The notes under the pieces were generated by a model. That model saw nothing but the letters and a program-made list of their open reading frames with translations, made no database searches and was not told the origin of the DNA. Positions 5,295 through 63,700 of a stretch of 64,000 nucleotides of DNA are shown in pieces. This DNA comes from Bilabrum cf. latius (lineage: Eukaryota): contig OZ237735.1 in assembly GCA_965178125.1 (NCBI GenBank), forward strand, positions 1,302,001 through 1,366,000, given 5' to 3'. Each line of letters begins with the position of its first letter. Position 1 is the first letter of the stretch. A program made the position numbers and the translations under genes.

Positions 5295-5543
5295 CGTTTC
5301 CGTTCACCGAGCGACAACCCAAAATTTCTTGGCGTGTTTCCAAGCTACGAAAGCAGTCCCAGACAATCGGATATATAGAACCACAAAAGCTATACTTTTC
5401 GCTGTGTGAGCGACAGATGCAAATTCTATCGCCTGCAATAAGACCATTCCGGCAAAAAATGCGGCGCCGCGCACCACACCCCGATACGGTTCCGCAGTTG
5501 ATCCATCCATCAAATTGAATAGCCGCTTTCCTGATATGCACCC

Positions 5544-14100: not shown

Positions 14101-14815
14101 GCTGTTCCCTGTTGTGAAGGGGCAGATATCGCCGAGTCTTCAGAGGCACGGGTGGTCCTCCGTGTCGCAGCGAGAAAGGCGGCGCATCCGCGCTGCAAGG
14201 AAGCAGTGCCTCTTCAGCGGTGGTAGCTTGGACGTGGGGTCTGTGCCTGACGGCGCCCTGGTGGGCCTTAGGCTACGAATGCAGCGGAAGACTCGTGGTC
14301 ATGGAATCAAAGAGCCTGCAAGCCTTTCTGTTGAGTTGCTAGCCGCGTGGGATGCCTTGCTCTAGTCAGTCCGAGAGCTGTGCTCTGCCGCGACAGAGGC
14401 GCTTCCTTCGTTCATCCTGTGGGGCGCCTAGCCACCCGAGAGGGTCCTGCAGCTAGTGGGTCTGAATCGCACGGGGAGTGCCCCGCCAAGCGGTCGGTTT
14501 CTAGGAGCCTTGTTCCAAGTGCTGGACGATGCCGGGGGCTTGGCGGGGACAGCTGCTATCGGTAGTCTGGGCAGTAGCAGCGGCATGCGGTTCCTCAGGC
14601 AGCTGGGCAGTCTCAGCTGTGAGGTGTCCAGGCATGCCTCGGAATTGATGGATAGACACAAAGATTCAGGGGGGTTTCCATCAGGCTTGTGGGCGGGTTG
14701 CATCGCGGCTGCGATTGGGGTCCGGCTACTGATGCTGTGGGTATGGAGCTTCGCCCGGTGCGGGGGCGGCAGCGTGTAGAAGCGCCACTAGGAGCTGAAA
14801 TCGAAGGTAGACTGA
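11150..14815 (+). CDS. LMF2: Lipase maturation factor family ER membrane protein (LMF2-like), ~1221 aa, about 14 in-frame TAG
   Basis: Motifs GQTFLSFQWDSLL*EAGF, FKLMLLSGYVKL*SRC, YHFAT*PLPT, YGLFRSMTG, RPELIVEGS, F*PRFDWQMWFAALG (* = TAG). Ends KSKVD-TGA, a KxKxx ER-retrieval-type signal. Start ATG 11150 is the most plausible. Confidence 0.92.
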
Positions 14816-26900: not shown

Positions 26901-29900
26901 TGTACTCAGCTTGGCACTCGCGATGGCAGAAGCCCAGCTGAGGTTCAGCGACTCTGCTGCTGACAGCCGTGCAATATGGGGCTTCGTGAAGAGCTGTTGA
27001 GGCGTTTGCCCGAACGACATGATCTGTGACACGCGCGATCGTTTCTCAACAGGGTCCTATATCTCGGACAGGTTCACCGCCCCCTCGTAGGTGAGCCAGT
27101 AGAACTCGTTGTCTGCCTTCACCGCTTCCTCTCCCCGCTGCTTGAAACCGAAAATGAGATCCACCCAGTGATTAAGTTTCTATGAAACGTGCTCGCTCTC
27201 CAAAGCCTCGCGCATTGTACGGACGAAGCGATCCGGCGAGCCATGCGCCCAAGGAGGGAGCACAACGTCATTCAACTCTATGCCGTCCTGTCGCGTTCCG
27301 AGCGGGAGACTCTGCTGGTTTCGAAGGAAGTCGGGCGTACAGTAGAATTCCGGGATGAGCTCCTTCACGTCGGATGGATTCTGCAGCACATTGCTCCAGG
27401 CCTCTTGGATCGAGTGAAACAGCCTGTCTGCGTGATCGAACTTTCCAGACTAGAGCTCCATAGCAAGGGAGCTGAACGGCTCCATTCGAACCAAGTAGTA
27501 CAGCACCGCACCCATCGAGCTGTAGTGAGACCCATACAGGAACTTGGGGGCACCGACATCCTCGAACGCCAGCCTCCTCTCCTGCAGCCTCTTCAGCCTG
27601 ACTGGGTTCAACGCCCCGACTGGCTTCGTGAGGTCACGGAACGTGGAAGTTGTTGGTCGCTCGAGATCCAGCGTATCGCTCTCGAAGTCAGCGATGACCC
27701 AGGGGAAGACAGGGTACTGTGACATGTCAGACGTGGTCCGCCCTGCCGCTTGGTTGAGGTGCATGAGGTAGTCAAAGTTGCTGATGGCCCTCAGTCTCCA
27801 GGCCGCTGTCCACCTCATCGTCTCTACCAGTGCAGGTCCGTCAAGGACACCAGTGGGGTCTGCACGCGGCCTCGCGGCGGTCGAAAACTCTCCACTCTGT
27901 GGCAGCGAAGCGCCTCCTTGGACCGAAGGCAAGGCTACACGGCTGCCAGGCGGAAATTGCACTGGCCGAAGGCGTTGCGATGCAGGTACCGAAAGGCCAG
28001 CTGGTCTGCCAGAGCTGCTTCGTAACAACGCGTCGGCCTGCGTTTTAACCGCAGAAGCAGCCACCTTATGCAACCTATCTACGAATTCAGTCTTGGCCTT
28101 CGCGTGCCCGAAGGCCAGAAACAAAGGTGACTGCCACGATGAAAACATCACCTCGATGGCAGTGGGTTGAAGCAGGTACCGCCTAGAATACACGTAAGAA
28201 ATGTCGCGCAGCTACCACGACCTCGGCTACATGCAGCGCAATTTCCCTGCGAATAGCGCATCTTGGACGGCCTGCTCGGACCCGGTCAGGTTTCGCCTCA
28301 GCCTGCTCCTGCTGGACCGCATCTTCTTTGGCGATCCCGCCGAGGAGGGCGGGACCATCTCGTTTGCACCGGACATGCGCTCCGTGTCAATGCGGTCCGC
28401 GCAGCGGTCGCATACGCGGACGGGCTCCTTGTAGCCGAGTAGAGGAATGGGTCTCCGCTCATTGGAACAGCTCTGACAGACCACACTGCCGCACTTTCTG
28501 CAGTGGTGCTTGCCGCTCGAGAGCATGCTGGACACGAACGGGTCGCCACAAACCATGCAATCCTACGCCTCGCTGTCTGGAATCCATTCGGGTCGACTGC
28601 CAATCATGGCTTTGGTGAGCGACTCGCCTGCCGTGGCAGCATCCCCTGCTGCGCTCGGGGCGGGGCTATGCAGCCCCAGCAGCGCACTCATTCCCACTGC
28701 TTCGGCCGACCCATCGTCGTACTCCATCTGGAACACGTCAGCTGCACTGACCCACTGACACTCCCCGGTGCCACCGACGTCCTCCACGCTGCCCTGACAC
28801 ACTAGGGCCTCTGGAAAGAAAAGAAGGCGAGTCGGGGTGAGCTCCACACGACCTGCTACGCTCACTCCCGGCATTACTAGCACGCAGTGGGAGGCATACA
28901 GTGCGGCTCCGTAGTCGAAGTTGCCGTGAGCTAGCTTCACAACCTGCCATTGGCTGTCATCCGCAGGCACTTCGCTAGCATCCACAGACAGATCCCGCGG
29001 TTGTCCTGGGGTAGGTAACGGCGTGATTGGGTCTGCTCCAGCACCAGATGCTGGTGGAGGACGTGCGAGGGTGCCTTCAGTGGCAGGCGTGACAGCCGCA
29101 AGTGCCTCGGATACTGGCTCCTCGCCAGGGAACTTTGCCCCCTTTATAGGGGTATGAAACGAGTCCTTTGGCACATTGCGCTTACCTGCACTGCCAATGG
29201 CAGCATCTTCACCAAGAACCGCGGGTTCAGCCCCACCTGGTCGGATGGGCCCGACCCACCCAATGTCCTTGGGAGTGCCGGCATTCTGCCGGCGAGGCAG
29301 CAGCCAAGACACAGCAGGCACTCCTGCTTGCATGACTGCCCTGGAGACGCGCAATTGACCAGGTACCTCCATCGCAGACCAAACCATGGTAGAGGGAGGT
29401 CGGCTGCCAGCCACGGACGGTCGGCTCTGCGTCGAGCTTGCCCAAATTGGCAGGCGCCCCAGAAATCTGATCTCGGCGGCAGTCAATCTATCTCCCACAG
29501 CATCGCTCCAACTTCCACCATCAATAAATGCTGCCATTTGCCGCTTCTAATTGTCATACATATTGGCATCCCGCTGCAGCTTGGCGGCGTGCAGGCTCTT
29601 GGCCCAATCGCTGAGACCTCGCTGCACGTACTGGCTAAGGCGCAGTGTGTGGGACCGCCATCTCCGGTCCCGTAGAGCCGCAATTGGTCGAATTGAGCCA
29701 TGTAATGCAATCTAGGACAAAGAAGCTTCCAGAGCGCTGGTTGGAAACACCACCGGTTTGGAAATCGCGCCTCCTCCTGCCCCGGGGGATGTTGCAGTCG
29801 GCGTGCTCATGTGCTCGTGGATAGGTGGAACGGCATCTACAAGCCCTACAGCCCCGAGAATATCCACTGCTGCTGTCCACAAGCTCTCTACAATGGACAA

Positions 29901-41868: not shown

Positions 41869-44800
41869 ATGGGCTTGAGGGCAATCTCACTCATTTTCGC
41901 TCTGATTGGAGCGTATCTCTTACCCCAAGCCAGCGGAAATTGTTCTGGCACTCGTCATTACCACCTTCGAGCGTCTGGATCTTAGTGGTGAGGCTACTTG
42001 TTGCCATAAAGCGGCACGCAACGCATGGCGCACCCACCTTGTGAGTGTTCGTTGTTTATGGCATTCGCAGGATCGCGGATGGAACCGGGCGGGGCACGAA
42101 CTATCGGTAAGATACATCAATAATGACCTTTTCTCAGTCTGAGGTATCTTATTGACGATGAGTCTGTTTCCTGCGCTTCCTCTAATTTCTAGCAGATCCT
42201 CGTTGAGTTGCTATTGGTGTGAGGGCGTACTAGTGCGCTTCAGCTGGCCCTCTAACTATTGATGTTATCGCTGCCATCAATAGTCTGATCTAAAGATACT
42301 CTAGCGCAACAGGATCGACACCTATCGCCCTATCGCAGACGCCTACTCTCCGTCCGGTGCCTTGACCTGGTACACTTGGAGCTATTTCGAGCTGACGTGG
42401 TCATCGTCGTGCACGAATGACTACATTCGCTTGCGCACGAGCCGCTCCTTCAGCTCCAGGCGCTACTGTGGCACAGCTAGATCGTATCCTAGCTCCCGCG
42501 CGCCGTCGAGCACGTTCTGGGGTTCAACCTTCGGGATCCACTTCAGGACTGGAACGCACCGACGCTGTTATTCATCGTGGTGGTGGTAAGGCGCATTGTA
42601 TTGCCATGATATCATGAGCTCTGGCTAGATTACCTACTGGCATGCTTCGCTCTCATTCTGCCTTCTAGTTCTGCAGGACTTACTGCTCCGGGCCGTACCC
42701 CTCGCAAGGATGTGAGACCTCGCGACTGGCCACAGGCAGCAGTTGCCGTGTAAATACAGCATCCAAAGATATCTTCAAGGGCATGGCTTCCCACATGTGA
42801 TACTGTAGATCTGTTGTGTTTTCGGGGTTTTCGTGTTTCTGTTTGGTTCCGACCGCCGCTAGCGACCACCGCTAGCGACCACAACTCAACCTCTTCCAAT
42901 CTTCTCAACAACCATTGCAATTCTTCGCAGGGGGAATCACTGTTTACTGGAATTGTCCAAGCGGTCGCTATCACCACTACAATGCGAACTCGTGTTACGA
43001 CTGCGGTGTTGGGCACTACCGGTCCGGTTGGTCTCGATCTCGCGGTTGCTCCCGCTGCTCCACGGGGTACTACCAGCCCAGCAACCGGCAGTCGAGCTGC
43101 CGTGCGTCGGGAACTGGCCATTACGTCGGCTCCACTGGATCGAGGTACCGTTACGCGTGTCCCGCGGGCCGGTACGGCAGCTCTAATGTCCAGCGATCGT
43201 CCTCGTGCACGGGGGCGTGTGCTGCAGGCTACTACTGCCCCTCCGGGTCCACGACCAACCGGCCCTCGGGGAGGCTCTGTCGACCAGGCAGGTACTCATC
43301 CGGTGGATCGGGTTCTGCAACGTGCCCCGGGGCCGTGGCGCGCGGTTACTGCAGCAACAACGGAGCTACAAGAAGCACCGGGCATGCCAGGTGCGGGCCC
43401 GGGCGGTACTGCCCGAACCTTGGCACCTCATGCTCCTCGCAGTCCGTCCCGCCCACAGGACGCTACACAACTCCGGATACTTCCTCGACTACCCCGCGAA
43501 CAGGCGTAGCCGTGTGCCGCGCCGGCCAGTACTGCTCGGGCGGCTTGAGCTACAACTGCCCAGCAGGCCGCTGGCGCTCGAGCACTGGCGCGTCATCGTC
43601 GAGCCACTGCACTGGGCAGTGCCAGGCGGGGTGCTACTGCCCCGCAGGCTCGACGGCATCCTGCCCTCGGGCGTGCGGAGATCAGAAGTACTACTGCCCC
43701 GCAGGTCGGGGCAGCCCGATCACCGTGCCAGACGGCAAGTACAGCTGCATCCCCGGGCAGGAGCCCACGTTCGCCAATGCCGACAGGCGCACGCACGCGT
43801 GTGACTGCCCGCCCGCTTACTCCTGCTCTGGCGGCGTCCGCACACCCCTGTTCGTGTGGACGGACAACGTGTGCAGCGCCAGCGGATCTCGCAAGGCTGC
43901 CGTCAACGAGAACGCCCGGAGCGCCGTGGCAGTGCAGGTGAACCTGGACGGTCTCACTGGTGGTTCGTACAGGATCACGGCTCAGACCAAGTTTGAGGAT
44001 GCCAGTGGGTGCCAGCACTCCACACCGTTCGAAGTGCTGAGCGACGGTCGCGTGCGTCTCAAGAGCACCCTCACCGCTGGTCTCTCTGCCGAGGAGTGCA
44101 CAGGGTACAAGGTGACCGTTGCCTACCGGTGGAGGGGTGACGACGTCACCACTTGCGCCATGGACATCGAAACGACCGACGTGAACGAGAGGCCCACGTT
44201 CGGGTCTTCTTCGTACTCGAGGGAGGTGGAGGAGGACGAGCCCGAGGACACCCAGGTGGGCGAGCCCATCACAGCCACGGATCCCGATAGGGGCCAGGAG
44301 CTGCTGTACTCGATCGTATCAGGAAATACGGGGGATGCGTTCCGCATCGGGTCTTGTTCCGGCCAGATCTACACGATGAAGCCGCTCGACCACGAGGGCA
44401 TCGGCTCCTACACCCTTCGCATCCGGGCGGCGGACACTGGCACCCCTCAATTCACCGTTGATACCACGGTGCGTGTCTCTGTGACCAACAAAAACGAGGA
44501 GCCCACGTTCCCCGAGGACGGAGACTACACATTCGAGGTGAACGAGGACGCAGGCGTGGGCGGCGCGTTCAGCCCGTCCTCTGCGGGGGCTCAGGATCCC
44601 GACGGTGACACCCTGGCCTACTCGCTCATCGGCAACGACCAGGCCGCCGTTGCCATCAACTCACAGACCGGTGCTCTCACCATCGCCAAGACCTAGCATT
44701 TCAACTACGAGCTGCCAGCCCAGCAGGTGCGCTCGTTCCGGATCAAGGCGTGCGATGCCGAGTTCTGTGCCGAGCAAGACGTCACGGTGACAACGATCAA

Positions 44801-47800
44801 CAGGAACGACCAGCCGGAGGTAACTTCGGGCCAGGAGTTCTTCATCTCAGAAGGGGCTAGCGCTGGGGATGCAGCGGGCACCGTGCAGGCTACCGATGAG
44901 GATGCAGGCAGCACGCTGGCATACTCGATCGTGTCAGGCAATGTTGGCTCTGTGTTCGGCATCAACAGTGGGACCGGCGCTATCACGCTTGCGAGTGGCA
45001 AGACCCTCGACCACGAGACCAGGGAATTGTACAGCCTGGTCGTGCGGGCCACCGACAGCGGCATCACGGGGCACACGACCGCCAAGAGCGGGGAGGCCAC
45101 GGTGACGGTGAGGGTGGACGACGTCAACGAGGCCCCCGTCCTGAGCGACATGAGCGCCTCCGTGGACGAGAACGACGCGGACGCAGAGATCACGCCGTTA
45201 CTATCCTCTGGCCTATCTGACCCCGACGGGATCCAGGGACAGACTTTCTTCTACACCATCGAAGGCGGCAACGACGACGGTCTCTTCTCCGTCACCGCGG
45301 CTGGCAAGCTGTCGCTGGCCTCGGCTCTGGACCATGAGGCCGCTGCGAGCCACGCGCTCACGGTCAAGGTGACGGATGGCGGTGGTCTCTCTGATACCGC
45401 CACCTACACAGTCAACGTGAATGACTTGGCCGAGCCGCCCCTCATCATGGAGTCGCAGTCGTTCAGCGTGGAGGAGAACTCGGCTGCTTCTGCCGGGAGC
45501 ATCGGTACCGTGCAGGTGACGGATGAGGATTCCACGACCGCCCAGCTTACCTTCAGCTTGGTCAGCTCTAGCGCCGCCGATAATTTCCGCATCTCGGGAG
45601 CGGGAGCCCTAACGCTGGCACCTGGGTTCTCTCCCGATTTCGAGTCTGCCAGCCAGTTCGTGTTCGAGGTCAAGGTGACGGACCAGAGCTCGCTCAGCAA
45701 TACCCAGTCCGTGACCGTGCTGGTGACCAACGTGAACGAGAGGCCGTCGATCTCGTCCCAGGAGCTCGCCATTGCGGAGCAGTATGGCACTGGCACTGAG
45801 GTTGGCACGCTCATTGCTTCGGATCCCGATGGTGATGCTCTTGTGTATGAGTGGACCTACTCCGGAGATGTGTTCCTTATGACTGAGAACGGTCTGGTGA
45901 ACCTCAACCAGCAGCCTTCCGGCCCTGGCACCACTCGCGCGACCGTCACTGTTAGTGATGGCGGCAGCCTGTCGGCCTCAGCCACGGTGACGCTTCGAGT
46001 CACGGACTCCAACTTCAAGCCGTCATGCGACCCTGGGAGGTTTACGATGGCCGAGAACTCGCCTGTGGGAACTGCCACCACGCCGTCAACGGGCCTCACC
46101 GTGTCGGATCGCGACACAGATGACAAGCATCGGTGGTCCATCATTGGGGACAACGTGGACTCCACATTCCAGATCGGCGCGACCGACGGGAAGATCTCAC
46201 TTGCCAAGTCGGTGCTTGACCACGAGACTAGGGGTTTCTATAACATCACCATTCAGGTCGAAGATGATGGTGCCGGCAAGCTCAAGGGCAGGTGCTTCGC
46301 CGAGATTGAGGTAACGGACGTGAATGAGGCACCAGAGCTGGAGAACAACCTGGGAACGTTCGAGTTCTTCGAGAACGACGACGATGGCACGGACGGAGGC
46401 GCCGTGGAGGGCGCAGACGTGGACGATGGCGACACGCTGACGTACTCGATCACCGAGGGCGACAGTACCGGTGCTTTTGCAATCGACAGCCGGACCGGTA
46501 ACGTGTCTGTGGCAGACAACACCAAGCTGGACTACGAAGACACGAGCAGCTACCGCCTAACCATCCAGGTGGAGGACAGCGGAGGCCTTAAGGATACCGG
46601 CAGGCTCACTGTCCTTGTGAAGAACGGCAACGATGCACCCTTCGGAAAGGACGTATCTGCTGCGACAGATGAGAACGTGGTCAACGCGCAGGTCACAACC
46701 GCGGCAGCCATCGACGAAGACGTTGGCCAGGGGCATGCCTTTGCTCTGTCCAGGACCAACAAGTACTGCTGGGCGCACACGGTGACCAGCCAGGAGGTCA
46801 ACACTCTCGTGGCAGTACGTGGCGCTCGGCTCCCCGCGGGCTCTTCGCAGGCCGAGGTCACTGTCACGTTCCGGCTTGCATCCAGGGGTTCTTCTCTGCT
46901 CGCCATGCGAGTAGGAGGATCGGGTACCAACGCGGCAGCGAGGTACGAGTTCGAGGTTGGCTGCGGATCGAGCCGCAACCAGGCCTGCATCCGCAGGTGC
47001 GGATCCGACGGCTCGTGCATCGATCTGGTGACCAGCGCCATCGCCAACTCGGGCGCAGGCATCGCTTTGGTGGACGTGGTGACAGGCGAGACCGGCGAGA
47101 CCGGTACTTTGGCCAACCTGTGCGCCACTGCCAACCGGCAGACGGGCGCCCTGTCCATCGGGCTGCGAGCCGACAACGAGCCGGGGACTGCCTGCAGCAA
47201 GACCGTGGCCAGTGCCACTGACAGCTCGACCGCCAAGCTTGATGTGCGTGAGGTTTACATGGAGTCCGCATTCGCGGGCACTCGTTTCACTAGCGTGTGT
47301 TTCGAGCCGTCCGCCAGCACGGACGCCGTTGGTTCCCGTGTCGGGCTCGTGGGCAGCACTGGCGCGATCAGCATGTCGACTGCCGGCGACTACGAGACGC
47401 AGCAGTTCCTCGGCTTCGAGGTGAAGGTCACGGACAACAACGTGGGCGACCTCAACCCCAAGGGTCTCACTGATTTCGGCACCATCATGATCGCCTTCCG
47501 CGACAAGAACGAGAGGCCCGGATGGCCATCGACCGTAGAGTGCAGCAACGGTGCCAGTGGCATGGTCAGCTGCTTCACGATCAAGGAGAACTCGGCCGCT
47601 GATACGCTGGTTGGTACCCTGGCGGCTGCTGTCGATCCAGATGCCCTTGCCCAACAGACACTCGCGTACACTTTGGGCACGGCGAATAACCTGGCCGGGT
47701 CCTCTGAGCTCTTCGTGGTCGGCAAGACTGACAGGCAAGTGCGCTTGAAGACGACCGGGTACATTTCTTACGAGGACACCAAGTCCTACCAGATCACTGT

Positions 47801-50800
47801 GACGGTGTCCGACGACGGTGACCCGGCCATGACCCAGTCTGGGCAGTTTGTCGTGGTTGTCGAGGACGTGAACGAGAAGCCAACGGTGGAGCGCGGACAG
47901 GTCTTCACAGTGGAGGAGAACTCCAACACGGGCAGCCCGGTGGGCAATGGCGCTGCGTTCCGCGCCTCGGATCCGGACTCCGAGGTGCACCCCCAGGACT
48001 GGGGCACGCTGTCGTACGAGCTGGTCGGCCTATCGAACTTCCCCAACGCCACCACGATCTTCTCGATCAACAACGCGACTGGCGTGGTGACCGTAGCTGC
48101 GGATGGCATGCTGGACTTCGAGTTCAAGAACCAGTACGACGCCACTCTTCGGGTCACCGATGGAGGTGGTCTCAAGGACGAGACCAAGGTCACCTTCCGT
48201 GTGCTGGACCTCAACGAGCCGCCCGTCATCTGGGATCAGGTGCGCGAGGTCAGGGAGGACGCTAACTTCCCCGACGCTGTGGGAGCAGAGATCCCCGCCT
48301 GGGATCCCGATTTTGGCCAGGATCTGATCTTCACGATCGTGGGAGGCTCTGCGCAGGGGCTGTTCACCATCAACAGGTGCAGTGGGCAGATCCAGGTTGC
48401 CACTGGCACCGCCCTCGATTTCGAAACCACGCGTAACTACACGGCCCGCATCTAGGTGTGCGATACCGGCCGCCCCGTGCTGTGCTCGCAGGCCACGACT
48501 GAGATTGAGATTCTAGATGTCAACGACCGCCCCTCGCTAACCGGTTCCACGGTGGAGGTGGTGGAAAACTCCCCCGTGGGAGAGCCCGTGGGGTCCCCTC
48601 TGCAGGGCTACGACGAGGATATCATCGGCAAGACCGTGGCTGGCTGGTATAACCTCACGTACTCGATCGTTGCAGGCGACTCGCGCAAGGTCTTCATGAT
48701 CGAGCCGCTCACCGGGCAGGTGCGCGTGGCTCGCGGAGAGCGTGGCCTGCTCAACTACGAGTCCAGTGATGCCAACCGGTTCGAGCTGGTCGTGCGTGTC
48801 AGCGATCAGGGTGGTCGCGGCGAGCCTGCTCTGCACGCGGAGGCCAAGGTGATTGTCAGTGTGACGAACATCAACGAGCCTCCAATTGCCGAGGACTAGA
48901 CTCTCACCATCGCTGAGAACGCGCCACGCACGCCGCGCCAGGCCGACGAGCAAGTCGGCGAATCGCTCAAGGCCGAGGACGAGGATGCAGGTGACGAGGG
49001 CAAGGTGTTTTGGGCCATCGAGAACGGAGATCCGGACGATCTGTTCAAGCTGGTGGGCGAAGGAGAGACCGGGGCCACCATCCAGCTCACGCAAGCAGGC
49101 GCCAGTGCCCTTGATTACGAGACCAAACCGGAGCACGTGTTGCTGGTGCGGGCGTACGATGGAGGTGATCCTAGCCTGAGTGCCTACGTCAACATCACGA
49201 TCAAGCTGCTCGACACGAACGAGAAGCCCAACCTTTGGTCGTCCCAGGAGCTCCGCATCGGCGAGCTGGCGTCTCTGCGCGCTCCCTTGCTAGGAGGCGC
49301 ACTCAACGCGACTGACCCGGAGGACGGCACCACGGCCGATGGCAAGCTTCAGTTTGAAATCCTCGGTGGAGACTCCAGGGGTGCTTTCGATATCAACACA
49401 GGTTCCGGCCAGATCTTCGTCGCGGATCCCAGCAAGCTCAACCACGAGGAAGTGGACGAGGTCAACTTGCTGGTGCGCGTGCGCGACTCGGGAGCCACGG
49501 CGGATGGCATCGAGGACCGCTTGATGCATCAGGAGACTGTCAAGCTGCACATTCTGGATGAGAACGAGGCGCCGTGGTGCATGGACGCCGTGTTCGATCT
49601 GGCAGAGAACTCTCCTTTGGGTCAGGAAGTGGGCACCATGAGCGGGGATGACGTGGATGACGGCGATGTGCTCTCGTGGAGCATTGCTGAGTAGCCGGCC
49701 ACAGCCGCTGGGGATACCGCGCCATTCGCCATATCTTCATTGACCGGATTGATCGAGGTGTCGGCGGATTCGCTGGATCTCGAGACGAAGGGCAGCTACG
49801 ACGTGACCATCAACATCACGGACGCTGGCGGTCTTGTCGGCCAGTGCAACGCCCGCGTCAATCTGCTCAACCGGAACGAGCGCCCCTGGATCACCGCAGT
49901 GCCCAGGCTATTCGTTCCGGCCAAGACTACGACCCAGGTGGGGCCCCCGCTTGCGCAGGAGTACCTCCGGGACCAGGATCTTATGGCACCTGGCGTGCGC
50001 GAGGCCCACACGTGGCAGCTCGTGTCCAGCACAAATCCTGACGACACGTTCACGATCGATATCGCTTCTGGGCAGATCGCTGTCGTGGACAATTCTACAA
50101 GTGCGCTAGTGTACCCGCAGGGTGGCCCTGGCCCCATCCACACCGTGAATGTGTCCGTTACGGACGCCGGCATTGACGGTCAGAAGCTCACGTTCGTGGC
50201 TCAGGTTGAGATCGAGGTGGTTGATAGGAATTTCCCGCCGCGTATCACCGGCCCCTTCGCTTTTTCGTTGGATGAGAACGTTAACTTGGACACGCAGGTT
50301 GGCATCGTCATGGGTACCGACGCCGACGGGCCACAGGGCCAGAAGTTGACGTACACCCTGCGCCCTGGCGGGCCCAACGTGAACAGGCCCTTCCCGTTCA
50401 AGATCGAGACCGTGGAAGACACTGGTCCTGATGGCGTGGGCACGGCCCGCATCTCTGTTGCCGACGCTGAGGGCGGCGTTGACTTTGAGGGCCCGAGAAA
50501 GGGCCGTTTCAACCTGTACGAGGCCATTGTGACCGCCACAGACGACCACGGCGAGTCGCCCCTGTCTGCCTCGCGTACCGTCCGCATCAGCATCAACGAC
50601 ATGCAGGAGGACCCTGTGTTCCCTATGGGAGATTCGGCTGCCGATGAGTACGTCCTCCGCGTGGTGGAGGGCGAGATGGCAGGCACCCTGGTGCGCGGCT
50701 CGGAGGAGGGCGCCCTGCGGGCCACGGATGAGGATTCCGCCGATCTCTACGGTGACGGTCTCTCGTATTCGTGGGGAGGATCCTCAGGGACGACCGCATA

Positions 50801-53800
50801 GTCCATGCTGCGGTTCGAGCCTTCCGAGGTGAACCACGCGAACATCACGCTGCGCATGGCCCTTGACCACGAGGCTCAGGCTGAGTACGAGCTACAGCTG
50901 GTTGCAACCGACTCTGCGGACAACACGGATGTCGCGATGGTGCGCCTGATCGTCGAGGACAAGAACGAGCCGAGCGTCTTCCGGAGGGTCGAGCGTCCCG
51001 ACGGCACCACGCTGACTGCAGGTGAGGCCTTGCAGGTGCGCGAGCTGGCGACTGGAGGCACCCACGTCGGCCGCGTTGTTGCGACCGATGAGGATAGCGG
51101 CGCTTGGGGTCGCATGCAGTTCTCGCTTGATCCCGATGCCCCATCTTCTTCATTTTTCACCATCGACGACAGCGGCAACCTCAGGCTTGCCTCAGGGGCT
51201 CGTCTGGACTGGGAGGATCAGGCGGGCTTTGACGTGGTAGTCGTAGTGCGGGACTCTGACCTGGAGGCGCCCCCGATCGTGGTGAACACGACTATCAGGG
51301 TGGAGGTGCTCAACGATAACGACGTCGCCATCACCTCGATCCACGTGACCGAGTCCTCTCAGGACGGCGGTCTAGGTGCTGAAGTGGGCGTCTCGGCTGC
51401 GGGCAGCGAGGGCCGCGCCATGTACGGTCAGAGTCACGGAGAGCTCGATTCACTCTTTGCCACGCGAGGAGGGGGCGTGGTGGAGATCTGGGGGGCTTCC
51501 TTTGGCAAAACGGCGCGCCGGCTCGCGGCAGAGGGTGAGTCCAGCGCCCTGGGCCGCAACCCCACGAGCGTGTCTGCAACCTTCGGACCCAGCGGCACTG
51601 AATTCGCCGCAAATGGCTGCCTGGTTGTGGAGGCCAACACGAGGATCTAGTGCACGATACCCGAGGGATACGGCCGGGACCACTTCTGGATCGTGACGGT
51701 GAACGGCGATCAGGTGGCAAACTCGATACAGAATGTGTCATCTCGCATCTTGGCCGGCAGTGCGGACGCAAGCACCGCAGAGAGGAACCCTGAGACTGGT
51801 GCGCTGATGCCGCTGCAAAGGCTGCGCATGTCGGGTTACTTCCCGCCCGTCATCACCGCGGCTGCCTCCAGCTTTGGGGCCGCTGATGGGTCTGTGGACG
51901 GCGTGCTTCCGACTTCGGGCGGCTCCGTCAGCACTGCGGGCGACTACTCCATCGTGCTCACCGGCACGGATCTCGGACCTATCGGCAGCGAATTGCCTAA
52001 AGCCGCCCGCGACGCCATGCCTACGCAGCGCCTGCGGTACGGCGCACAGAGTGCCATGATGTCTCGCCCCGATGGTGCTGCTACCCTCAACCTGGAGACC
52101 ACCGGGTGCCAGGTATCCGTGGCGCATACCGAGATCAGGTGCGATGTGGTGCCGGGCGCAGGCCACAGCTTCGTGCTGACCGTGGATGTGGGCTAGCAGC
52201 GCTCCATGGAGTTCTCCAACACGACTCTGAGGTACATGCGGCCATCCATCACCAGGGTGTTGATGCCGCTCAAGAACGCCAGCATGCCCGAGCAGGGTGT
52301 GCAGCCCATCAACACTCGTGGCGGTGCCGAAGCAGGCCTGATCGCGATCGAGGGTACCAACCTGGGACCCGCGAGCCTTGGCCCGCAGTACGTGCTGGCC
52401 TTCTACTCGGCCAACTATGCTGAGGGCGACACGGCTGGGGTAGAGGCTGAGGCTGCCGCACCCCGCTCCCTGGACCTGCTCGCTGCTCAGCGAGAGCAGA
52501 TCGTGGACAACGACGGTTTCGTGTACCAGGCCCTTGTGTGCAGGGTGCCTGTCGAGTTTGAGCATACTGGAATGCTGTGCGAGCCCTCAGCTGGTACCGG
52601 CAGGGACCATCGATGGAAGGTGGCTGTGGCTGGACTGGCCAGCGCTGCCAGCACGGACACCACCAGGTATAGCGCCCCTGTGCTTAAGAGCGTGAGCGGG
52701 CCTGGCGCCGTGAACGCACCTACTGTTGGTGACGTTGCCATCCTGCTAAACGGCGATTTCTTCGGCCCTGTGACGCCTGTCAACGACGAGGGCGAAATCC
52801 AGGGCACCGCGGCGACCCTGCCGAGCGCCGACTACGGTCGCGTGAACGATACACATGGTCGGACGTGGCCCTACTTCGCCGGTGTGAGCTGCCGCGTGGT
52901 TGTGGCGCACGTCCAGATCGAGTGTAAGGTGGCCGAGGGCAGCGGAGACAAGCTGGTGTGGTCTGCATCGGTCGGTGGCCAGACCTCCGGGCCGCAGGAA
53001 ACCGCAATGTCCAGCTACCATCCCCCGGTTATCTCTCTGTACAAGGGACCCGGCTCTCGCCTCGCCTACACGAACGGCTCCCAGATTGTGGACATCGAGG
53101 GCAGGAACTTTGGGCCGGTCGGAACTCCTGTGGATCGTGCTCTGTATGGCAGCGAAGAGCTCGACGTGCAGTTCGACGCAACCAACTGCTACGTGCTTGA
53201 GGCACACGAAATCGTGCGATGCCTCACCGCTGTGGGTGCCGGTGAGGGCCTCCGCTGGAAGTTGACGGTGGACGTGCAGGAGAGCGTGAGCCCCACGACG
53301 TCCTACTCGCCTCCCCTCATCACCAGTTTCGAGAGCGACGCCGGCAGCTTGCCTGTGCATGAGCTCAGCACGGATGGTGGCGACTGGGTCTTGATCCGTG
53401 GGCAGAACTTTTCAGTGGCAGAGCACCTGGAGGAGGTGACCTACGGGCCTGCTGGTACCGGGTTCACCGCGCTGAACTGCTCCATCTACGAGGACCACTT
53501 CACACTGCGGTGCCTCACTGTGCCTGGCCCTCCGGGATAGGCCATGAAGTGGATCGTGCGCGTGGGTGGGCAGGCAAGCCAGCCGTCCGTTGCAGTAACC
53601 CGCTACGCGCCTCCGCGCGTGCTCAGCGTCAACCCGATCTCCGGCCAGACGAACGGTGGGCAGACAGTGGTGGTCACAGGTACCAACCTTGGGCTGGCCT
53701 GGGACACCGCAGCCGTGGGCGTCCGCTTCAACGCTGCCGGCGAGATGGACGATGAAGCGTCTCGTTCCCTGCAGGTGCTGGACTTGTCGGCGTTGCCGTC

Positions 53801-56800
53801 TGGATTCCGTGATGGCATCCCTGACGACATGCGCAGGTACCTCACTCTCTCGCGACTTGGAGGTCCGGATGGTGCCCGCCTCATGCGGGGCATCGCGCTG
53901 GCTCAGCCGGCTGGCTTCCCCTTTGATGCCGCTGACTATGATGACTCCCAGGAAGCCGCTGATGCCGCGATGGCCGCTGCCATGCTGAGGCTGCGCGAGT
54001 GGGTCGCTGGCTTGGAGCGCGTGCGCGTGAGCGACGAGCGGATCCTGCAGCACCGCGGACTGCACCAGGTTGAGTTCGAACTGCCCGAGGGCTTCGGCAC
54101 GGACCGCGAGGTGTTCCTTAGCATCGGCACGAACGAGGCTCTGTCCAACGTGGGTCTGTTTGACTTCCTGAGGCCAGCAATCGACAACATCGCCCCCGAT
54201 CGCATCCTGACCGACTTCGGCATCGACCCTGAGAGCCTCGAGGCGCAGACATCGCTGCGTGTGATCATCGAGGGTGAAAACTTCTGCAACGGCAAGGATG
54301 GCTGCGGTTCCGTGCGGATTGATGGGCTGCCCGTCGACACGTGGAGCTGGAACCACAACGAGATCGTGCTGCTGTACCGCAAGGACCCAGCAGAGTCGGC
54401 CACCAAGGAGCACACGGTGCAGGTGATCGTGGGCGGGCAGGTATCGGAGGAGGCCACCTTTGCCGAGCCCATCCCTTCCTTCGATGGCAGAAACCAGCCC
54501 AACGACTACGAGAACGTGCCTACGGATGCCGTTGATCCTGCCACCGGCAACCGTATCGTGTTCGAGATCTTCGGCGTTGCAGACCTGAACCGCGTGCCCC
54601 TGGACCAGCTCAATGTCACCATTGGCGGGCGCCAGTGCGAGCAGGTCGCAGTGAACCCGTGCCAGGAGCCGACGGACGGCCGCACGTGCTCCAGTGGATC
54701 GTGCTGCCCTGACAATACCCAGGCCACCACGTACTCGACCCTCAGCTGCCTCATGCCTCAGGGAACAGGGGCCGGAAACATCGTGCTGATCGCAGTAACC
54801 GGAGCTACCAGCCGAGAAGACAGCGGGCTCACTGTGTCCTACGGCAAGCCGCAGGTGGCTCGCGTGATCACTCTGGAGGACTACCCCGGCCTGCCCGCCG
54901 GCAGCGACCTCCTTGCCCCCGACCGCTTCTTCGACTCGGAGGCGCACCAGCAGGCGTGGCTCGACTTCGAGGCGGATGGCTCCACGGGCACACCACCAGC
55001 TTTGCCCAGGCCCCGCCGTGGCATGCCCACGTTTGGCTGCCGCGTGCGCATCGAGGGCATCAACTTTGGCACACCAGCGCTTGCTACCCCGCTGGTGGCA
55101 CTGCCCGAGGTGGAAGTGGTCCACAATGCCAGCATGGGTCACTTGCACACTCACACTGCTATTGAGGCTATGATTGGCGCCGGATCTGGCGTCGTCCGTG
55201 CCCTTACTGTCGCAGTCACCGACCAATTCTCGAACGCCCGGCGCGGCCTGAGGTACGGACAGCCGATCGTGACTGCCGTGCAACCCGAGCTGTACGTCGC
55301 AACCGACCCCGCAGGTCCGGCTCCGACCTCCGGTGACGCTCTCGTGCGCATTTCCGGTCGCAACTTTGGCCCTGCCGGCCCCGCCGATCCTACCCTGTAG
55401 GTGCAGGTGGGTGGCAGGTCGTGCGTGGTTGACGCGGTCCGTGACCCGTGGGCAGCAAACTCCCAGCATTCTTCGATGCTTTGCCGTACCCCTGCAGGGC
55501 AGGGCAGGGACCTGCCGGTGCACGTCGAGCTGGCAGGATAGTCCAGCGACATCTCCGATGAGGCACCCGCCGGCGCGCTGGTTGACTCGTCTATGCAGTC
55601 GGATGAATCCTCTCCCATCGTGAGGTACGCCTACAACCGACCCGTGGTGCGCTCCCTGATGCCAAGGTCGGCACCAACTGGCGGCCGCCGCATTGAGTTG
55701 CCCTCCGTGAATGAGACCAGAGACAACCCGTACGCCATGTGGGAGATGTACTCGTGGCTGATCGACTCGGAGGAGGTGCGTCTGGAGGATCCTGGGTCGT
55801 TCAGCAGCGACGACGATGCCATCATCGCAACGGTAGAGGGCATGGACTTCGGTCTTCAGGGCAACGCGTGGGTGGAGTTCTACGTGCCGCCGTAGTAGGG
55901 AAGTGCCTCGCGCAGACTGCAGCAGTTCGCCGATTTCACTCGTGCGCCCACTGGGCCATCCCCCGGCTTCCCGCTGTCTGCTGATTCGCTGCTGGTGGCA
56001 CCCGCCGACATGCTGGTGCACAACCACACCCACATGCGCTTCCCTATCCCTCGGGGAAGTTTCACTCAGAGCGACATGGTCATCGTGGTCTGGGTCGGCG
56101 GGCAGTCATCCGCCAACTCGCCCGAGGAGGCCGACCCGAGGGTCAGCATGGTCTTCGACCCGCCTCGCGTACACGGGGTCAAGAACTTCGAGCGAGATCC
56201 GGAGGACTGCGAGGACGTGGATCGCTGCTTTAACACGTATGATGCTGCCACTGGGACGTACACGAGGCACTGCCGCAAGGCGCCCGCCGAGTGCTACGAC
56301 ACGATCGGACAGTTCTACCTAGAGCTGGTCGGCGAGTCGTTCGGTACCGACGGTGACGTGAACGTGCGTGTCGGCGAGTGGGACTGCCCGCTCGCCGCCG
56401 ACAACGAGATCCCTGGCCGTCTGGGCTCACACTCCCACTTCCGCCTGGTGTGCCGCGCCCCAGCTGGCTACGGTGACAACCTCCCTGTGACCGTTACTGT
56501 AAACGGCAGGTCCTCTTTGGATGACCGCGTCGAGTACGTGCCCGACAGGACTGAAGATACGGGCTCTCGCATGGTGGTGGTCGAGGAGGCACCGGAGCCT
56601 CCTATCTTCGCCTATGATCCCCCTATCGTCATGGCTGTGCAGAGCTCTGAGCCCAACGCTGACGGAGACGACGTGCGAATCCGTGGGAAGAACTTTGGCG
56701 GGGAGCCTACGCTTGTAGAGATCACCATCGGTGGCCTCGAGTGCCTGGAGCCCCAGTGGCTGAACGACGGGCTGCTGCAGTGTGATGCTCAGCGCGACAA

Positions 56801-59426
56801 GGTGGGTCTCAAGAACATGACTATTCTGGCCGCTAACCGCACCGAACCGTACGTCATCTTTGACTACGAAGAGCTGATCACGTTCCAGTGTGGAAAGGAC
56901 TTCTATGGTCTCGTAGGCGAGTACTGCGTGAACTGCGAGGAGGAGCGCATCGGTGCTGTGTGCCCCGGCGGCGAGACCTACGAGGACCTGGTCACGAGCG
57001 ACGAGGGATTCTGGAGGCTGGACTTCAACATCACCAGCGGCGAGTCGATCGACACTCGGTACTGCCACCAGAGCAGGAACGAGTTCCACGAGCTGTCGGT
57101 GCTCAGGGAGCAGCAGTGCATGTACACGGCACCGTGCGAGCCTACGTGGGCCTGTGTCGGGAACAACACCTGCGCCGAGGGATACACCGCAGAGAGGTGC
57201 TCGCAGTGCGTCAAGGGCACGCATTATCGGATCGGTGGTGAGTGCAGGAAGTGCCCTGACAGGCCATGGCTTATCTTCGTGGGGATGGGAATCGCTGCCA
57301 TGATGGCAGGGACCGCTGGTTACATCCTCAACAGGAAGGGTATCAAGAACGTGCTGATCATGATCTGCGCCGACACCTTCCAGGTGCTGGCCCTGTTCTC
57401 CAACGCACGCATCCGCTGGCCCCCGGTCCTGGAGCGCTTCTTCCAGCTCCTGTCCGCCTTCAACCTGAACGTGGAACTCGCTGCCCCGGAGTGTATCCAG
57501 CCCGATGTGACCTACGAGCAGAAGTTTGCAGCCACTGTGCTTTTGCCCGTCGTGGTGGTAATTCTGTTCTTCTCAGTGTATCTGGGACGCCTGCTGTACA
57601 AGATGTGCTGCATGAGCAAGGGCAAGGAGCACCTGCACGCCCATGCGCCGCAGCTGATCAGCTCGCTCATCATCCTGTCGCGCGTGTGCTACCTGTTCGT
57701 TACCCAGGCTGCTCTCAGCACCGTGAGCTGCCTGTAGACGACTCCTCCGGACCCACAGGGAGTGACGTACATGGATGGTCTACTTGACTACCCGTGCTGG
57801 CAGCCAGGCTCCAAGCAGCTGGTCCTGTTCCCGTTCGGCATGGCAGCATTCCTGGGATACAGCATCGTGCTGCCTCTGGCCATGTTCTGGTTCGTCCGCT
57901 CCAACAAGAATTCGATCAAGCACGACCAGATCCTGCGTGCGGCAGGCACCGGCAACGACAACAAGAGCAAGCTGTACCACTTCCGCAAGACGTGGCACCA
58001 GCTCTACTACCCATTCAAGCCCGGGAGCAGCGCTTGGATGATCATGGTCATCACCCGCAAGTTCGCCATCGCCACCATTGCTCTGGTGTTCCGTGTCTCC
58101 CCGACGTACCAGATGAGTGTGCTGATGCTTGCCCTGTTCGCTGCCTTCGTGCTGCAGATCCGCCACGAGCCCTTCATGTCTCGCGGTGACTAGGGCCGCG
58201 TGATCGCCGAGCATCGTGTCAAGGTGCTGACCAGCATCGAGCACGCCCGGATCGAGTCCGAGATCCAGGCTATGCTGGAGAAGAACTACAAGAGGACGCA
58301 AAAGGTCGACGTGCTGCTCGACTCGCGCCGCTCCTCCAACCATGTCGGCGAGCAGATCGTCAAGTACCTGCTGGACTACAACCAGGTTGAGTCCTTCCTA
58401 CTTGGCTGCGGCATTCTCGTGTGCCTTGCTGCCGTCATGCTGGCCTCGAGCCGATTTGATGACGACCAGATCGACTACTACCGCAACGAGTACGACGCCA
58501 TCACGTGGGCAACTGTGCTCATCCTCGTGGTTATCGTACTGTACGCGCTGATCGTGCTGGCCCTGGACATCTACTTCGGCGTCGCGCCCGAGCATGCAGC
58601 CGCCACGTTACAGTCGTGTGGTTGCTGCAAGTCTATTGCCGAACGCGCGAACGCTCACGACGTTGCCAAGCGTGGCAAGGGCGGCAAGAAGGGCGCCGAG
58701 ATGCTGCACGACGACGGCGAGGAGGACCTGCAGATGGCCAGCAACCCGCTGATGATGCAGGCCATGAACAACGCCAGCTCGTCATCCACCGGTGTGGAGA
58801 CCGGCATCTCGATCGAGAGGCTGCTCGCCATGGAGAACCCACCCCCCAAGGAATCGTGGGCAGGCGTTCGCCTTTGGATGCGCAGCCTGCACGGATCCGT
58901 GGAGCAGCTCAAGGAGCGGCTGCACGAGCAGCAGATCGAGGCTGCGAAGGGCACCGCTGCTTCGGACGGTGCCGCCGCCGTGGCCTCTGGTGGACGCCGC
59001 CGGAAGGGCGGTGCGATCACCAAGGCTGCCGCAGCATCGGGCGGCAGCAAGCGTCGCCGGTTCGGGCAGCAGGCTCCGCGCAGTGGCAACCTGAGTATGG
59101 GAACTGGCTCCGGGAAGAAGCAGCGTTCCATGCGCTCCCTACTGAGCACTGGTCGCAAGGGTGCTCGCCTGGCGGGAGTGTCTTCGCCTTCGTCCACCCG
59201 GAGCGAGGAGGAGCAGAAGGATGAGTCCATGATGATGAACCCTCTGCAGCAGCCGGTGACCGGCGATTCCACACCACTCGCTTCCGCTGAAGCAGAGAGC
59301 AAGCGCCAGGAGGATGTGGCCAGCGCCGGGGCCGCCTCTCCTTCTGCCGCCGCGTCATCTGCTGCTGACGCTCTCGAGGAGGGCGTCAACCCGATGGCTA
59401 GGCGCATCGCCGGAAAGTCGGAGTGA
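41869..59426 (+). CDS. Giant cell-surface receptor, ~5650 aa: signal peptide - CUB - Cys-rich (GCC2/GCC3-like) repeats - ~21 cadherin repeats - IPT/TIG repeats - Cys-rich - ~9 TM helices - cytoplasmic tail. Exons 41869-41987, 42071-42106, 42196-42218, 42339-42585, 42677-42711, 42931-59426
   Basis: Thirteen ORF fragments from 42915 to 58200 share one frame, separated only by TAG (15 TAG in total). Cadherin Ca-binding motifs DxNExP, AxDxD, LD(H/Y/F)E. IPT motifs (GxNFG, VxVGGQxS). CPAGxYC repeats. CUB-like NY...CYW / FEL...C.NDY...RYCG. Signal MGLRAISLIFALIGAYLLPQASG. Ends in TGA. Confidence 0.9.
41988..42930 (+). other. Cluster of five GT-AG introns (41988-42070, 42107-42195, 42219-42338, 42586-42676, 42712-42930) with 36-, 23- and 35-nt microexons
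   Basis: All have GT(G/A)AG donors and GCAG acceptors. Phases chain consistently and yield a coherent CUB domain after a signal peptide. Confidence 0.75.
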
Positions 59427-63291: not shown

Positions 63292-63700
63292 CAGCCCGAT
63301 CTTGGCGAGCCTGCGAATGAGGGCAAATTTGGATGTTGTTCTACCGCATGCTATCAACATAACATAACTATAAGTAACAGTTTAGCAAGAGAAGCTTACA
63401 TGATCCCCTGAATTGGTTTTGCGCTGTCGGAATATGACGCGCAGCCCTTCTGTGATATACATAATACGGCACGCTACTAACACTCTAGACGCGCTCCTCG
63501 CCATGGCGGCCGCCAACGTCAAGACATGGTTGAACCAGAATGGGCAGTATGACGGGGTGCCGGCAGGGGGCGCCGGATGGAACGCGAACGCTGACGCTCT
63601 CCAGGGGGAAGTGGGTCCCTCTTTCGAACAAAATATCACATCCCCCATGCACTCCAGCCGCAAGCAAATCCAGTGGATAATCCTCAAGCTGTGGATCTTA

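Follow-up and report, generated by a model that had tools for sequence, protein, structure and literature searches.

In-frame TAG as a probable glutamine codon, with TAA and TGA as stops, at a GC-rich locus carrying a giant cadherin gene

The window, that is, the whole 64-kb stretch of DNA analysed, contains 12 gene models with 19,197 codons, among them a giant receptor-like gene on the forward strand. Its open frame (42816..59426, +) contains exactly 15 TAG codons and neither TAA nor TGA ahead of its terminal TGA. A putative first coding exon lies upstream at 41869..42106 (+); it begins with the ATG at 41869 and its product starts MGLRAISLIFALIGAYLL..., which resembles a signal peptide. Translation of this upstream stretch indicates that the first-exon frame joins the later exons only through at least one further splice. 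The inferred introns, all GT..AG and on the same strand, are intron 1 at 42107..42195 (89 nt, skipped by contigs from runs X1 and X2), intron 2 at 42219..42338 (120 nt, with a micro-exon of about 23 nt upstream of it), intron 3 at 42586..42676 (91 nt) and intron 4 at 42712..42930 (219 nt, skipped by contigs from two runs). Contigs from runs X4 and X7 are unspliced and continuous across 42000-43233. Downstream of intron 4, a single coding exon of 16.5 kb (42931..59426, +) runs to the stop codon TGA at 59424-59426, and no GT..AG joint within it was found among the run contigs. Since the TAG at 42873-42875 falls inside inferred intron 4, 14 in-frame TAGs remain in this exon. A preliminary description had counted 15 TAGs in one gene, which is right for the open frame and one too many for the exon; the individual TAGs that it named (48453, 48897, 55539 and 55893-55898) were all confirmed in the frame.

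The product of the giant gene is predicted to be a surface protein with a signal peptide, with Cys-rich, cadherin and IPT/TIG repeats, and with a membrane domain of nine helices. Our own profile identified 20 cadherin repeats at aa 464-2836 of the 42816 frame (44205..51323, +), interrupted by about 240 aa of non-cadherin sequence (aa 1275-1513). The PF00028 score was 582 bits against a cut-off of 28.8 (E 3.3e-179, 16 stretches), and the repeats carry D.N[DE].P linkers. They are followed by the IPT/TIG region at aa 2883-4642 (51462..56741, +), where our own profile found 11 repeats past the inclusion threshold and 2 weak ones, and where PF01833 (TIG) scored 137 bits against a cut-off of 20.9 (E 1.9e-40). 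A hydropathy scan placed about nine hydrophobic helices at aa 4819-5259 (57270..58592, +), with a low-complexity tail downstream. The TRP family PF06011 (Flc-type) gave a sub-threshold match that amounts to resemblance only (22.5 bits where 28.5 is required; E 5.9e-5, with 205 of the 426 profile positions covered).

The C-terminal membrane end of the giant protein matches 3143 proteins at E ≤ 0.001. Over the C-terminal 1200 residues it is 40% identical (E 2e-182) to giant cadherin-domain proteins of Cafeteria roenbergensis/burkhardae (the P0366 cluster, e.g. KAA0150122.1). These are likewise very long and named as cadherin-domain proteins, one member being called 'TRP C-terminal domain-containing'; unlike the window gene, they are recorded as uninterrupted standard-code translations. 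The genes of the window are eukaryotic (BEACH/FYVE, RPAP1, Prp17, LMF1 and M17 peptidase), and their best named matches are in stramenopiles (Pythium, diatoms, Cafeteria). The source organism is apparently related to the bicosoecids.

Over the 12 gene models, TAG occurs in frame 122 times, and TAA and TGA 0 times each. TAG is present in 11 of the 12 models, conserved protein-coding genes included, at a frequency of 6.4 per 1000 in frame compared with 7.3-7.7 per 1000 out of frame. Judged by how often it occurs out of frame, TAA should have appeared in frame 55 times, and judged by the CAA:CAG ratio 38 times; for TGA the out-of-frame rate is 17-19 per 1000. When TAG was taken as sense in an ORF scan of the window, the summed length of frames of at least 400 codons rose from 9,120 to 25,008 codons. 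The same scan gave practically no gain in frame length with TAA as sense, and 0 gene frames were opened with TGA as sense. TAG accounts for about 15% of Gln codons, and its share correlates with the CAA share among genes (Spearman 0.72, p = 0.008). The base 3' of TAG has the same distribution as that 3' of CAG and CAA (p = 0.88) and hence there is no sign of a read-through context at TAG. The conclusion of the preliminary description that decoding is efficient rather than leaky very probably holds. In its behaviour TAG resembles CAA, both being non-preferred alternatives to CAG. In the window genes it is very probably an ordinary minor Gln codon, with TAA and TGA retained as stops.

The 3' ends of the genes are TGA in 11 of the 12 models, TAA in one and TAG in none. 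These ends were called by reading through TAG, so a terminating TAG near a gene end would escape detection. In LMF1, a lipase-maturation-factor gene, two TAGs lie 11 and 7 codons upstream of its TGA. Codes in which one codon is stop or sense according to context occur in Condylostoma and in karyorelict ciliates, and a similar dual TAG, read as Gln within genes but as a stop close to the genuine 3' end, could be proposed here, given that only 12 gene ends were seen, that terminal TAGs would be hidden by the way the ends were called and that LMF1 has its two TAGs just ahead of the TGA. We consider this unlikely. None of the 12 genes needs a TAG stop, all of them ending in TGA or TAA, and in the cadherin gene even the final TAG, at aa 5126, precedes membrane helices to which homologues align. 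In addition, the UAG-only codes described in the portion of the literature drawn on here, which keep dedicated stops, needed no dual meaning (PMC5304391).

The amino acid assigned to TAG was examined by comparison with homologues from outside the window, with TAG masked, and a column likelihood was computed over 16 TAG columns. Gln scored +7.5 and the runner-up, Ser, -16.1, a lead of 23.6 log units. As a control, the sense codons having at least 10 columns were put through the same procedure, and 52 of 52 came out with their standard meaning. The TAG at 27450..27452 (-), in the BEACH domain of a neighbouring 3773-codon gene, stands in a column that is Gln in 119/119 homologues. Two TAGs of LMF1 are similar, one at 11768..11770 (+; Gln in 120/120) and one in the C-terminal domain at 13514..13516 (+; Gln in 109/118). 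The chance of at least three of five highly conserved columns being Gln is P = 5e-4. Against the Gln reading are the LMF1 TAGs at 11546..11548 (+; Leu in 109/120 homologues) and, at the edge of the aligned domain, 12008..12010 (+; Asp in 73/79), as well as the giant-gene TAG for aa 4974 (57735..57737, +; a conserved column with Pro in 111/139). Altogether, Gln is the residue in four of the seven conserved TAG columns (at least 65% one residue) and Leu, Asp or Pro in the other three; CAG codons themselves stand opposite non-Gln in 5 of 20 equally conserved columns.

Metagenome relatives provided a further comparison. Two of them, L001 and L002, have BEACH domains 82% identical to that of the window, and their frames extend over 812 and 921 codons on condition that TAG is sense, containing 9 and 5 TAGs, respectively. 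At the invariant Gln column of 27450 the window has TAG where both relatives have CAG. At a second invariant Gln column (27138..27140, -; Gln in 120/120) the window has CAG and the relatives have TAG. These genes show the predicted code to be common to the window and at least one related organism. It could still be argued that TAG is sense with another residue, such as the Leu of the rhizarian exLh, the Ser of Scotinosphaera or the Glu, Lys or Tyr that some ciliates use, on the strength of the Leu, Asp and Pro columns and of the internal repeats of the giant protein, which taken alone place Arg slightly above Gln. This seems very improbable, considering that the three non-Gln columns disagree with one another while four conserved columns are Gln, that Gln leads every alternative by at least 23 log units and that relatives exchange TAG and CAG at invariant Gln columns. 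The outside homologues settle the likely meaning of TAG as Gln.

The internal repeats had been put forward in the preliminary description as a database-free proof that TAG encodes Gln. We aligned the 20 cadherin and 11 IPT repeats using self-built profiles with TAG masked as X. The alignable columns hold 8 TAGs, of which only 2 have Gln as the most frequent residue among their sisters. The sister-repeat matches originally quoted all exist; they had been hand-picked from this wider set. The likelihood from internal repeats was -2.7 for R, -4.0 for Q and -4.2 for S, values that do not separate the three residues. The mean Gln fraction in sister columns was 0.110 for TAG, 0.105 for CAG/CAA and 0.032 for all other codons, and in a permutation test the TAG columns differed from those of other codons (p = 0.005) but not from those of CAG/CAA (p = 0.43). 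Since R ranks above Q and Gln is commonest in so few columns, the repeat argument is not a proof, and the conclusion it was meant to carry stands instead through the outside homologues, the orthologue with Gln at aa 4242 and the TAG/CAG exchanges with the relatives.

Among the individual TAGs, aa 2028 (48897..48899, +) has Gln as its commonest sister residue (6 of 18 repeats), as does aa 4242 (55539..55541, +; 4 of 9 sisters). At the latter position 47 of 69 outside homologues have Gln, as has the orthologue P0371, which is 73% identical. At aa 1880 (48453..48455, +) the 19 sisters include R6, K4, T3, Q2 and V2, so that Gln is possible and not indicated. The TAG at 50799 is opposite F in 17 of 18 sister repeats, in a doubtful alignment, and that at 52194 is opposite G in 7 of 9; the columns of 51648 and 53538 are R, D, L or E, and that of 44694 is mixed. 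The other TAGs of the giant gene are in inserts or unaligned stretches. These include the tandem TAG-TAG at 55893..55898 (+; aa 4360-4361), which had been cited as requiring efficient decoding. The pair lies in a variable, indel-prone loop and carries no information on the amino acid; in the close orthologue the residues there are E-V, next to a gap of 5 residues. The preliminary description had held that TAGs standing mostly opposite non-Gln residues would count against its reading. Such was the outcome of the alignment, but the test was badly framed because in the same repeats even canonical CAG is matched most often by Gln in only 18 of 82 columns. The internal repeats are a neat database-free check with little power at the present sample size.

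The window stretch was found in runs from three studies, and their contigs agree at the TAG sites shown. Contigs of run X1 cover all 14 exon TAGs of the giant gene with 0 differences, and X1 also contains a spliced form. As the run types of X1 and X2 are not on record, the statement that RNA keeps TAG is conditional upon X1 being an RNA run. A reading in which TAG is still a stop, through pseudogenes, assembly errors, editing of UAG to CAG in RNA or leaky read-through, can appeal to these unrecorded run types, yet it is highly unlikely, since decay or error would also have spread TAA and TGA, each with 0 occurrences in 19,197 codons, since the contigs of three studies concur and X1, the source of spliced contigs, keeps every TAG, and since 34 and 14 TAGs per gene with no special context would presumably make full-length protein by leakage impossible.

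The same three codon assignments, UAG as Gln with UAA and UGA as stops, have been described for the nuclear code of the fornicate Iotanema spirale, as far as the excerpted account goes (PMC5304391). Within that account UAG is never a terminator, compared with none of the 12 gene ends in the window, where ends were set by reading through TAG (PMC5304391). In both cases only some of the UAG columns are conserved Gln, a pattern also seen with canonical Gln codons (PMC5304391). The two differ in their stops, with UAA in 104 of 119 Iotanema genes in the excerpt (PMC5304391) and TGA in 11 of 12 window genes. The Iotanema data described there are from a transcriptome only, and in the GTS motif of its eRF1 the T is changed to G (PMC5304391). 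Iotanema is a metamonad, whereas the window is GC-rich with best matches in stramenopiles.

Reassignment of UAG alone to Gln is also listed for Protocruzia tuzeti and two phyllopharyngean ciliate lineages in the sections of PMC11687900 drawn on here. The window likewise reads UAG as Gln with UAA not reassigned; those lineages are ciliates, however, a group to which neither the genes of the window nor its GC content nor its best matches point. The UAR = Gln code (NCBI table 6) is attributed in the same sections to many ciliates, Hexamita, ulvophyte green algae, Streblomastix and Amoeboaphelidium (PMC11687900). TAG is Gln in that code and in the window, whereas TAA is sense in table 6 only. UAG is given as Leu in exLh and as Ser in Scotinosphaera in the parts of PMC5304391 and PMC11687900 concerned. 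Like the window, these are non-ciliate nuclei with UAG alone reassigned; unlike the window, their residues, Leu and Ser, lie at least 23 log units below Gln here. In recoded phages ('code 15') TAG is Gln and the suppressor tRNA is often encoded by the phage. The window, by contrast, belongs to a eukaryotic nucleus, with eukaryotic genes and introns of spliceosomal type.

We propose, with a probability of roughly 0.9, that the window comes from the nucleus of an intron-poor protist with a GC content of about 60%, in whose cytoplasmic translation UAG encodes Gln while UGA, mostly, and UAA are the terminators. By analogy with other UAG-only codes as outlined in part in PMC5304391, a dedicated tRNA-Gln with the anticodon CUA would decode UAG, and eRF1 would no longer recognise this codon (PMC5304391). 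UAA would be left unread by such a tRNA because a CUA anticodon is incapable of pairing with it. No tRNA genes and no Rfam matches were found in the 64-kb window, and eRF1 is not among its genes. The giant cadherin gene would be merely one long gene written in this code.

Nuclear codes that split UAG from UAA are few, those listed in the sections drawn on here being Iotanema, one rhizarian, Scotinosphaera, Protocruzia and a handful of ciliate lineages (PMC11687900, PMC5304391). We tentatively suggest, at slightly less than even odds, that the window represents a separate, hitherto unreported origin of UAG-only reassignment to Gln, shared by two or more species of heterotrophic stramenopiles near the bicosoecids that are GC-rich and end their genes in TGA. 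If true, this would be the first stop-codon reassignment in the nuclei of stramenopiles. UAG would moreover have been captured where base composition should favour it and leave UAA as the rare stop, which fits poorly with a simple codon-disappearance route. Public protein catalogues apply the standard code to this organism and cut its proteins at TAG, as in the entry P0242, which begins at the first Met downstream of a TAG; its giant genes are thus broken in databases. Being GC-rich and TGA-ending, unlike Iotanema, the window tests whether the route depends on base composition, and each new UAG-only lineage would be a natural experiment in how eRF1 and a tRNA with a CUA anticodon discriminate UAG from UAA.

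Under the standard code, the plus strand from 42.8 to 59.4 kb is a string of open frames, each closed by a TAG. When TAG is read through, these merge into a single cadherin gene frame (42816..59426, 5536 codons), which contains 15 TAG, is free of TAA and closes with TGA. A check of this frame confirmed exactly the TAG positions named in the preliminary description, namely 48453, 48897, 55539 and the tandem pair at 55893-55898. Over the whole window, the summed length of frames of at least 400 codons rises from 9,120 to 25,008 codons with TAG as sense, while TAA as sense brings almost no gain and TGA as sense leaves the gene frames unopened. The 12 gene models (19,197 codons) contain 122 in-frame TAG and neither TAA nor TGA, and they end in TGA in 11 cases and in TAA in one. 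Out of frame, the same DNA has rates per 1000 of 7.3-7.7 for TAG, 2.5-3.3 for TAA and 17-19 for TGA. In-frame TAA would be expected 55 times from the out-of-frame rate or 38 times from the CAA:CAG ratio, as opposed to the zero observed. Comparison of the in-frame and out-of-frame rates thus indicates no in-frame selection against TAG, with TAA and TGA wholly excluded. The code change is limited to TAG.

TAG accounts for 15% of Gln codons, and across genes its share tracks the CAA share (Spearman 0.72, p = 0.008). The base that follows TAG is distributed like the base that follows CAG or CAA (p = 0.88), which argues that a read-through context is absent. TAG behaves as an ordinary minor codon. 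The BEACH gene has 34 TAG and the cadherin exon 14, numbers at which a full-length product would be out of reach for leaky read-through. Scans of the 64-kb window found no tRNA genes and no Rfam matches.

The preliminary description had taken the internal cadherin and IPT repeats as proof that TAG encodes Gln. This argument was examined with all TAG masked as X and with profiles built from the protein's own repeats, such that 20 cadherin and 11 IPT repeats were aligned. Eight TAGs fell in match columns; the others, including the tandem pair, sit in inserts. Among sister residues, Gln ranks first at aa 2028 (TAG 48897; 6/18) and aa 4242 (TAG 55539; 4/9), numbered from the start of the open frame. 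At aa 1880 (TAG 48453), which had been offered as another Gln example, the sister residues include only two Gln among 19 compared with six R, four K and three T, so that this column may fit Gln but does not point to it. The remaining five face columns of F, G, R/D, R/L/E or mixed residues, and the one facing F is probably a local misalignment. The likelihoods over the eight columns were -2.7 for R, -4.0 for Q and -4.2 for S, values so close that the repeats alone decide nothing. As a control from the same repeats, Gln is the commonest sister residue in 18 of 82 columns under canonical CAG and in about 1-4% of those under other codons. Sister columns have a mean Gln fraction of 0.110 for TAG, 0.105 for CAG/CAA and 0.032 for other codons; TAG differs from the other codons (p = 0.005) and not from CAG/CAA (p = 0.43). 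In the repeats, therefore, TAG resembles a Gln codon, but this falls short of proof, as Gln leads in only two of the eight columns. The resemblance first noticed was real, yet its examples had been picked from favorable cases and the conclusion, although right in light of outside homologues, was overstated as proof.

For a test from outside, three genes were aligned to database homologues with TAG masked. The TAG at 27450-27452 in the BEACH domain occupies a column where all 119 homologues have Gln, and those at 11768 and 13514 in LMF1 occupy columns with Gln in 120/120 and 109/118, respectively. In the giant cadherin gene, a full library search placed TAG 55539 at a column with Gln in 47 of 69 giant homologues, and an orthologue with 73% identity reads LAGQSS at this position. 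Three TAGs lie under conserved columns that are not Gln (Leu 109/120 and Asp 73/79 in LMF1, Pro 111/139 in the cadherin gene), each a different residue; CAG codons miss at a similar rate, with 5 of 20 conserved columns being non-Gln. A column likelihood over 16 TAG columns gave +7.5 for Gln and -16.1 for the runner-up Ser, and the same procedure recovered the standard meaning of all 52 sense codons with at least 10 columns. Among columns at least 90% conserved, Gln is found in 3 of 5 under TAG versus 11 of 295 under other codons (p = 5e-4). At the level of sequence comparison, the reading of TAG as Gln is settled by these outside homologues and not by the internal repeats. An alignment of the GH2 gene to PDB entries placed TAGs at variable positions only and so carries no information on their meaning. 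When the whole BEACH protein was compared pairwise to its five best homologues, the TAGs outside the domain were mostly unaligned or in badly matching stretches.

Public sequencing runs from three studies contain 90-99% of sampled words of the stretch, and the window itself may derive from one of these runs. Contigs of runs X1 and X2 skip four plus-strand stretches with GT..AG ends (42107-42195, 42219-42338, 42586-42676 and 42712-42930), which those of X4 and X7 traverse continuously. We read the four as putative introns; with them removed, the cadherin frame stays open for about 120 more codons. The first TAG (42873) lies inside the fourth, so that the earlier count of 15 TAGs in one gene holds for the open frame, but the exon 42931-59426 has 14. 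Within this exon, no GT..AG joints were found in contigs of the public runs. Two micro-exons at the 5' end of the gene, 42196-42218 (about 23 nt) and 42677-42711 (about 35 nt) on the plus strand, contrast with the intron-free 16.5-kb exon that makes up the rest. The start codon is likely the ATG at 41869, followed by a sequence that resembles a signal peptide; at least one further splice would be needed to join it to the later exons. The X1 contigs span all 14 exon TAGs without a difference, and editing of TAG would be excluded if these contigs are RNA. They perhaps are, since the same run contains a spliced contig, although the types of X1 and X2 are guesses and none of the runs found to contain the stretch is listed as RNA. 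Between 42000 and 60000, runs X2, X4 and X7 also yield contigs 90-95% alike to some parts of the cadherin and IPT stretch beside identical ones. These give rise to 'joints' that are not GT..AG and are probably from paralogues or a second strain.

Pfam searches of the giant protein detected repeats of the cadherin family (E 3.3e-179) and of the IPT/TIG family (E 1.9e-40). From the N-terminus, Cys-rich repeats (Ephrin_rec_like, below threshold) are followed by 20 cadherin repeats, with an insert of about 240 residues of no assigned family among them, and by 11 or more IPT/TIG repeats. Next come a Cys-rich neck with a below-threshold DUF7630 match, a set of about nine hydrophobic helices with a below-threshold match to the Pfam TRP family, and a low-complexity C-terminal tail. 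In the library, 3143 proteins match the last 1200 residues at E <= 0.001, many of them thousands of residues long. Among the ten best matches looked up by name, the single eukaryote-named one belongs to a Cafeteria roenbergensis/burkhardae cadherin-domain cluster. Its domains lead us to take the protein for a giant receptor with a putative role in adhesion or sensing in a heterotrophic flagellate. On the minus strand, antisense to the IPT region, an 897-codon frame (53412-56105) lacks stops of any type; it is most likely a by-product of the GC-rich coding sequence opposite and not a gene.

The other long frames are eukaryotic genes as well: a FYVE/BEACH protein (3773 codons), RPAP1, a Prp17-type WD40 splicing factor, a lipase maturation factor, a class-3 lipase, an M17 peptidase and a GH2 glycosidase. 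A frame of 1833 codons at 5535-11036 (+) combines a Wntless-like membrane domain with a class-3 lipase domain. It is the sole gene model in the window to end in TAA, and its end overlaps the non-coding upstream portion of the LMF1 frame. Two TAGs at 14777-14791 (+) precede the TGA that ends the LMF1 frame by 11 and 7 codons; they may both encode Gln, or the protein may end at one of the two. The GH2 gene (60397-63381, -) is beta-galactosidase-like with an N-terminal PAN domain, and among solved structures its best relatives are beta-galactosidases (4ypj, E 2.5e-64). Its six TAGs indicate that, irrespective of origin, this gene is translated with the host's code.

A search of metagenome contigs that used the BEACH domain as query returned 21 loci. 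Two short contigs (L001 and L002; 55-56% GC) are 82% identical to the window in this domain and are open end to end (812 and 921 codons) only with TAG as sense; they contain 9 and 5 TAG, respectively, and lack both TAA and TGA. At the invariant-Gln column the window has TAG and both contigs CAG; at a second such column (120/120) the window has CAG and both contigs TAG. In the well-aligned part, a TAG on one side is matched by TAG or CAG at 6 of 8 sites, the remaining two being Lys and Val. The code, as judged from these contigs, is common to the window and a second organism. Remoter loci (56% identity or less) have long standard-code frames without TAG, for example of 2158, 1126 and 735 codons. 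One metagenome contig of 30% GC (L006:9228-10049) has a BEACH match with seven TAA and two TAG in frame; its organism probably reads both as sense in a ciliate-type code.

Among matches that carry a name, the best come from Pythium oligandrum in the case of LMF1, from oomycetes and diatoms in that of Prp17, and from Cafeteria in that of the giant gene. A quick single-gene tree of Prp17 placed the window on a long branch (1.58) outside the clade of oomycetes plus diatoms. Its neighbors include a EukProt match with a GECG01 accession, whose sister prefix GECH01 is tied to Pharyngomonas kirbyi in one paper; GECG01 itself appeared in none of the papers searched. Support near the window was SH-aLRT 83-87 with no starred clade, and the placement is not firm. 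The study behind GECH01 reportedly also sequenced the bicosoecid Halocafeteria. Our best guess, at slightly better than even odds, is a stramenopile near bicosoecids.

UAG is read as Gln, with UAA and UGA as stops, in Iotanema spirale, which ends its genes mainly in UAA and for which a tRNA-Gln with anticodon CUA and an altered eRF1 are predicted (PMC5304391). Two further papers describe this change as restricted to the Iotanema lineage (PMC9161772) and report the same assignments in Protocruzia and two phyllopharyngean ciliate lineages (PMC11687900). Iotanema and the window share the code but differ in the main stop, which is TGA in 11 of 12 window models. Iotanema is an unlikely source, judged by its published stop usage and by the window's best matches. 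In the literature searched, mostly outside subscription journals, we found no UAG=Gln code reported for stramenopiles or for any other non-ciliate lineage rich in GC; the runs are from 2025, and a description could exist or be forthcoming. The window's code adds a further case to a class of genetic codes that is already known but rare. A 471-aa protein in a public catalogue (P0242) is 98% identical to the window's Prp17 (15253-17058, +) and starts at the first Met past the last TAG of that gene. Standard-code gene calling, as in this instance, cuts short the proteins of this organism.
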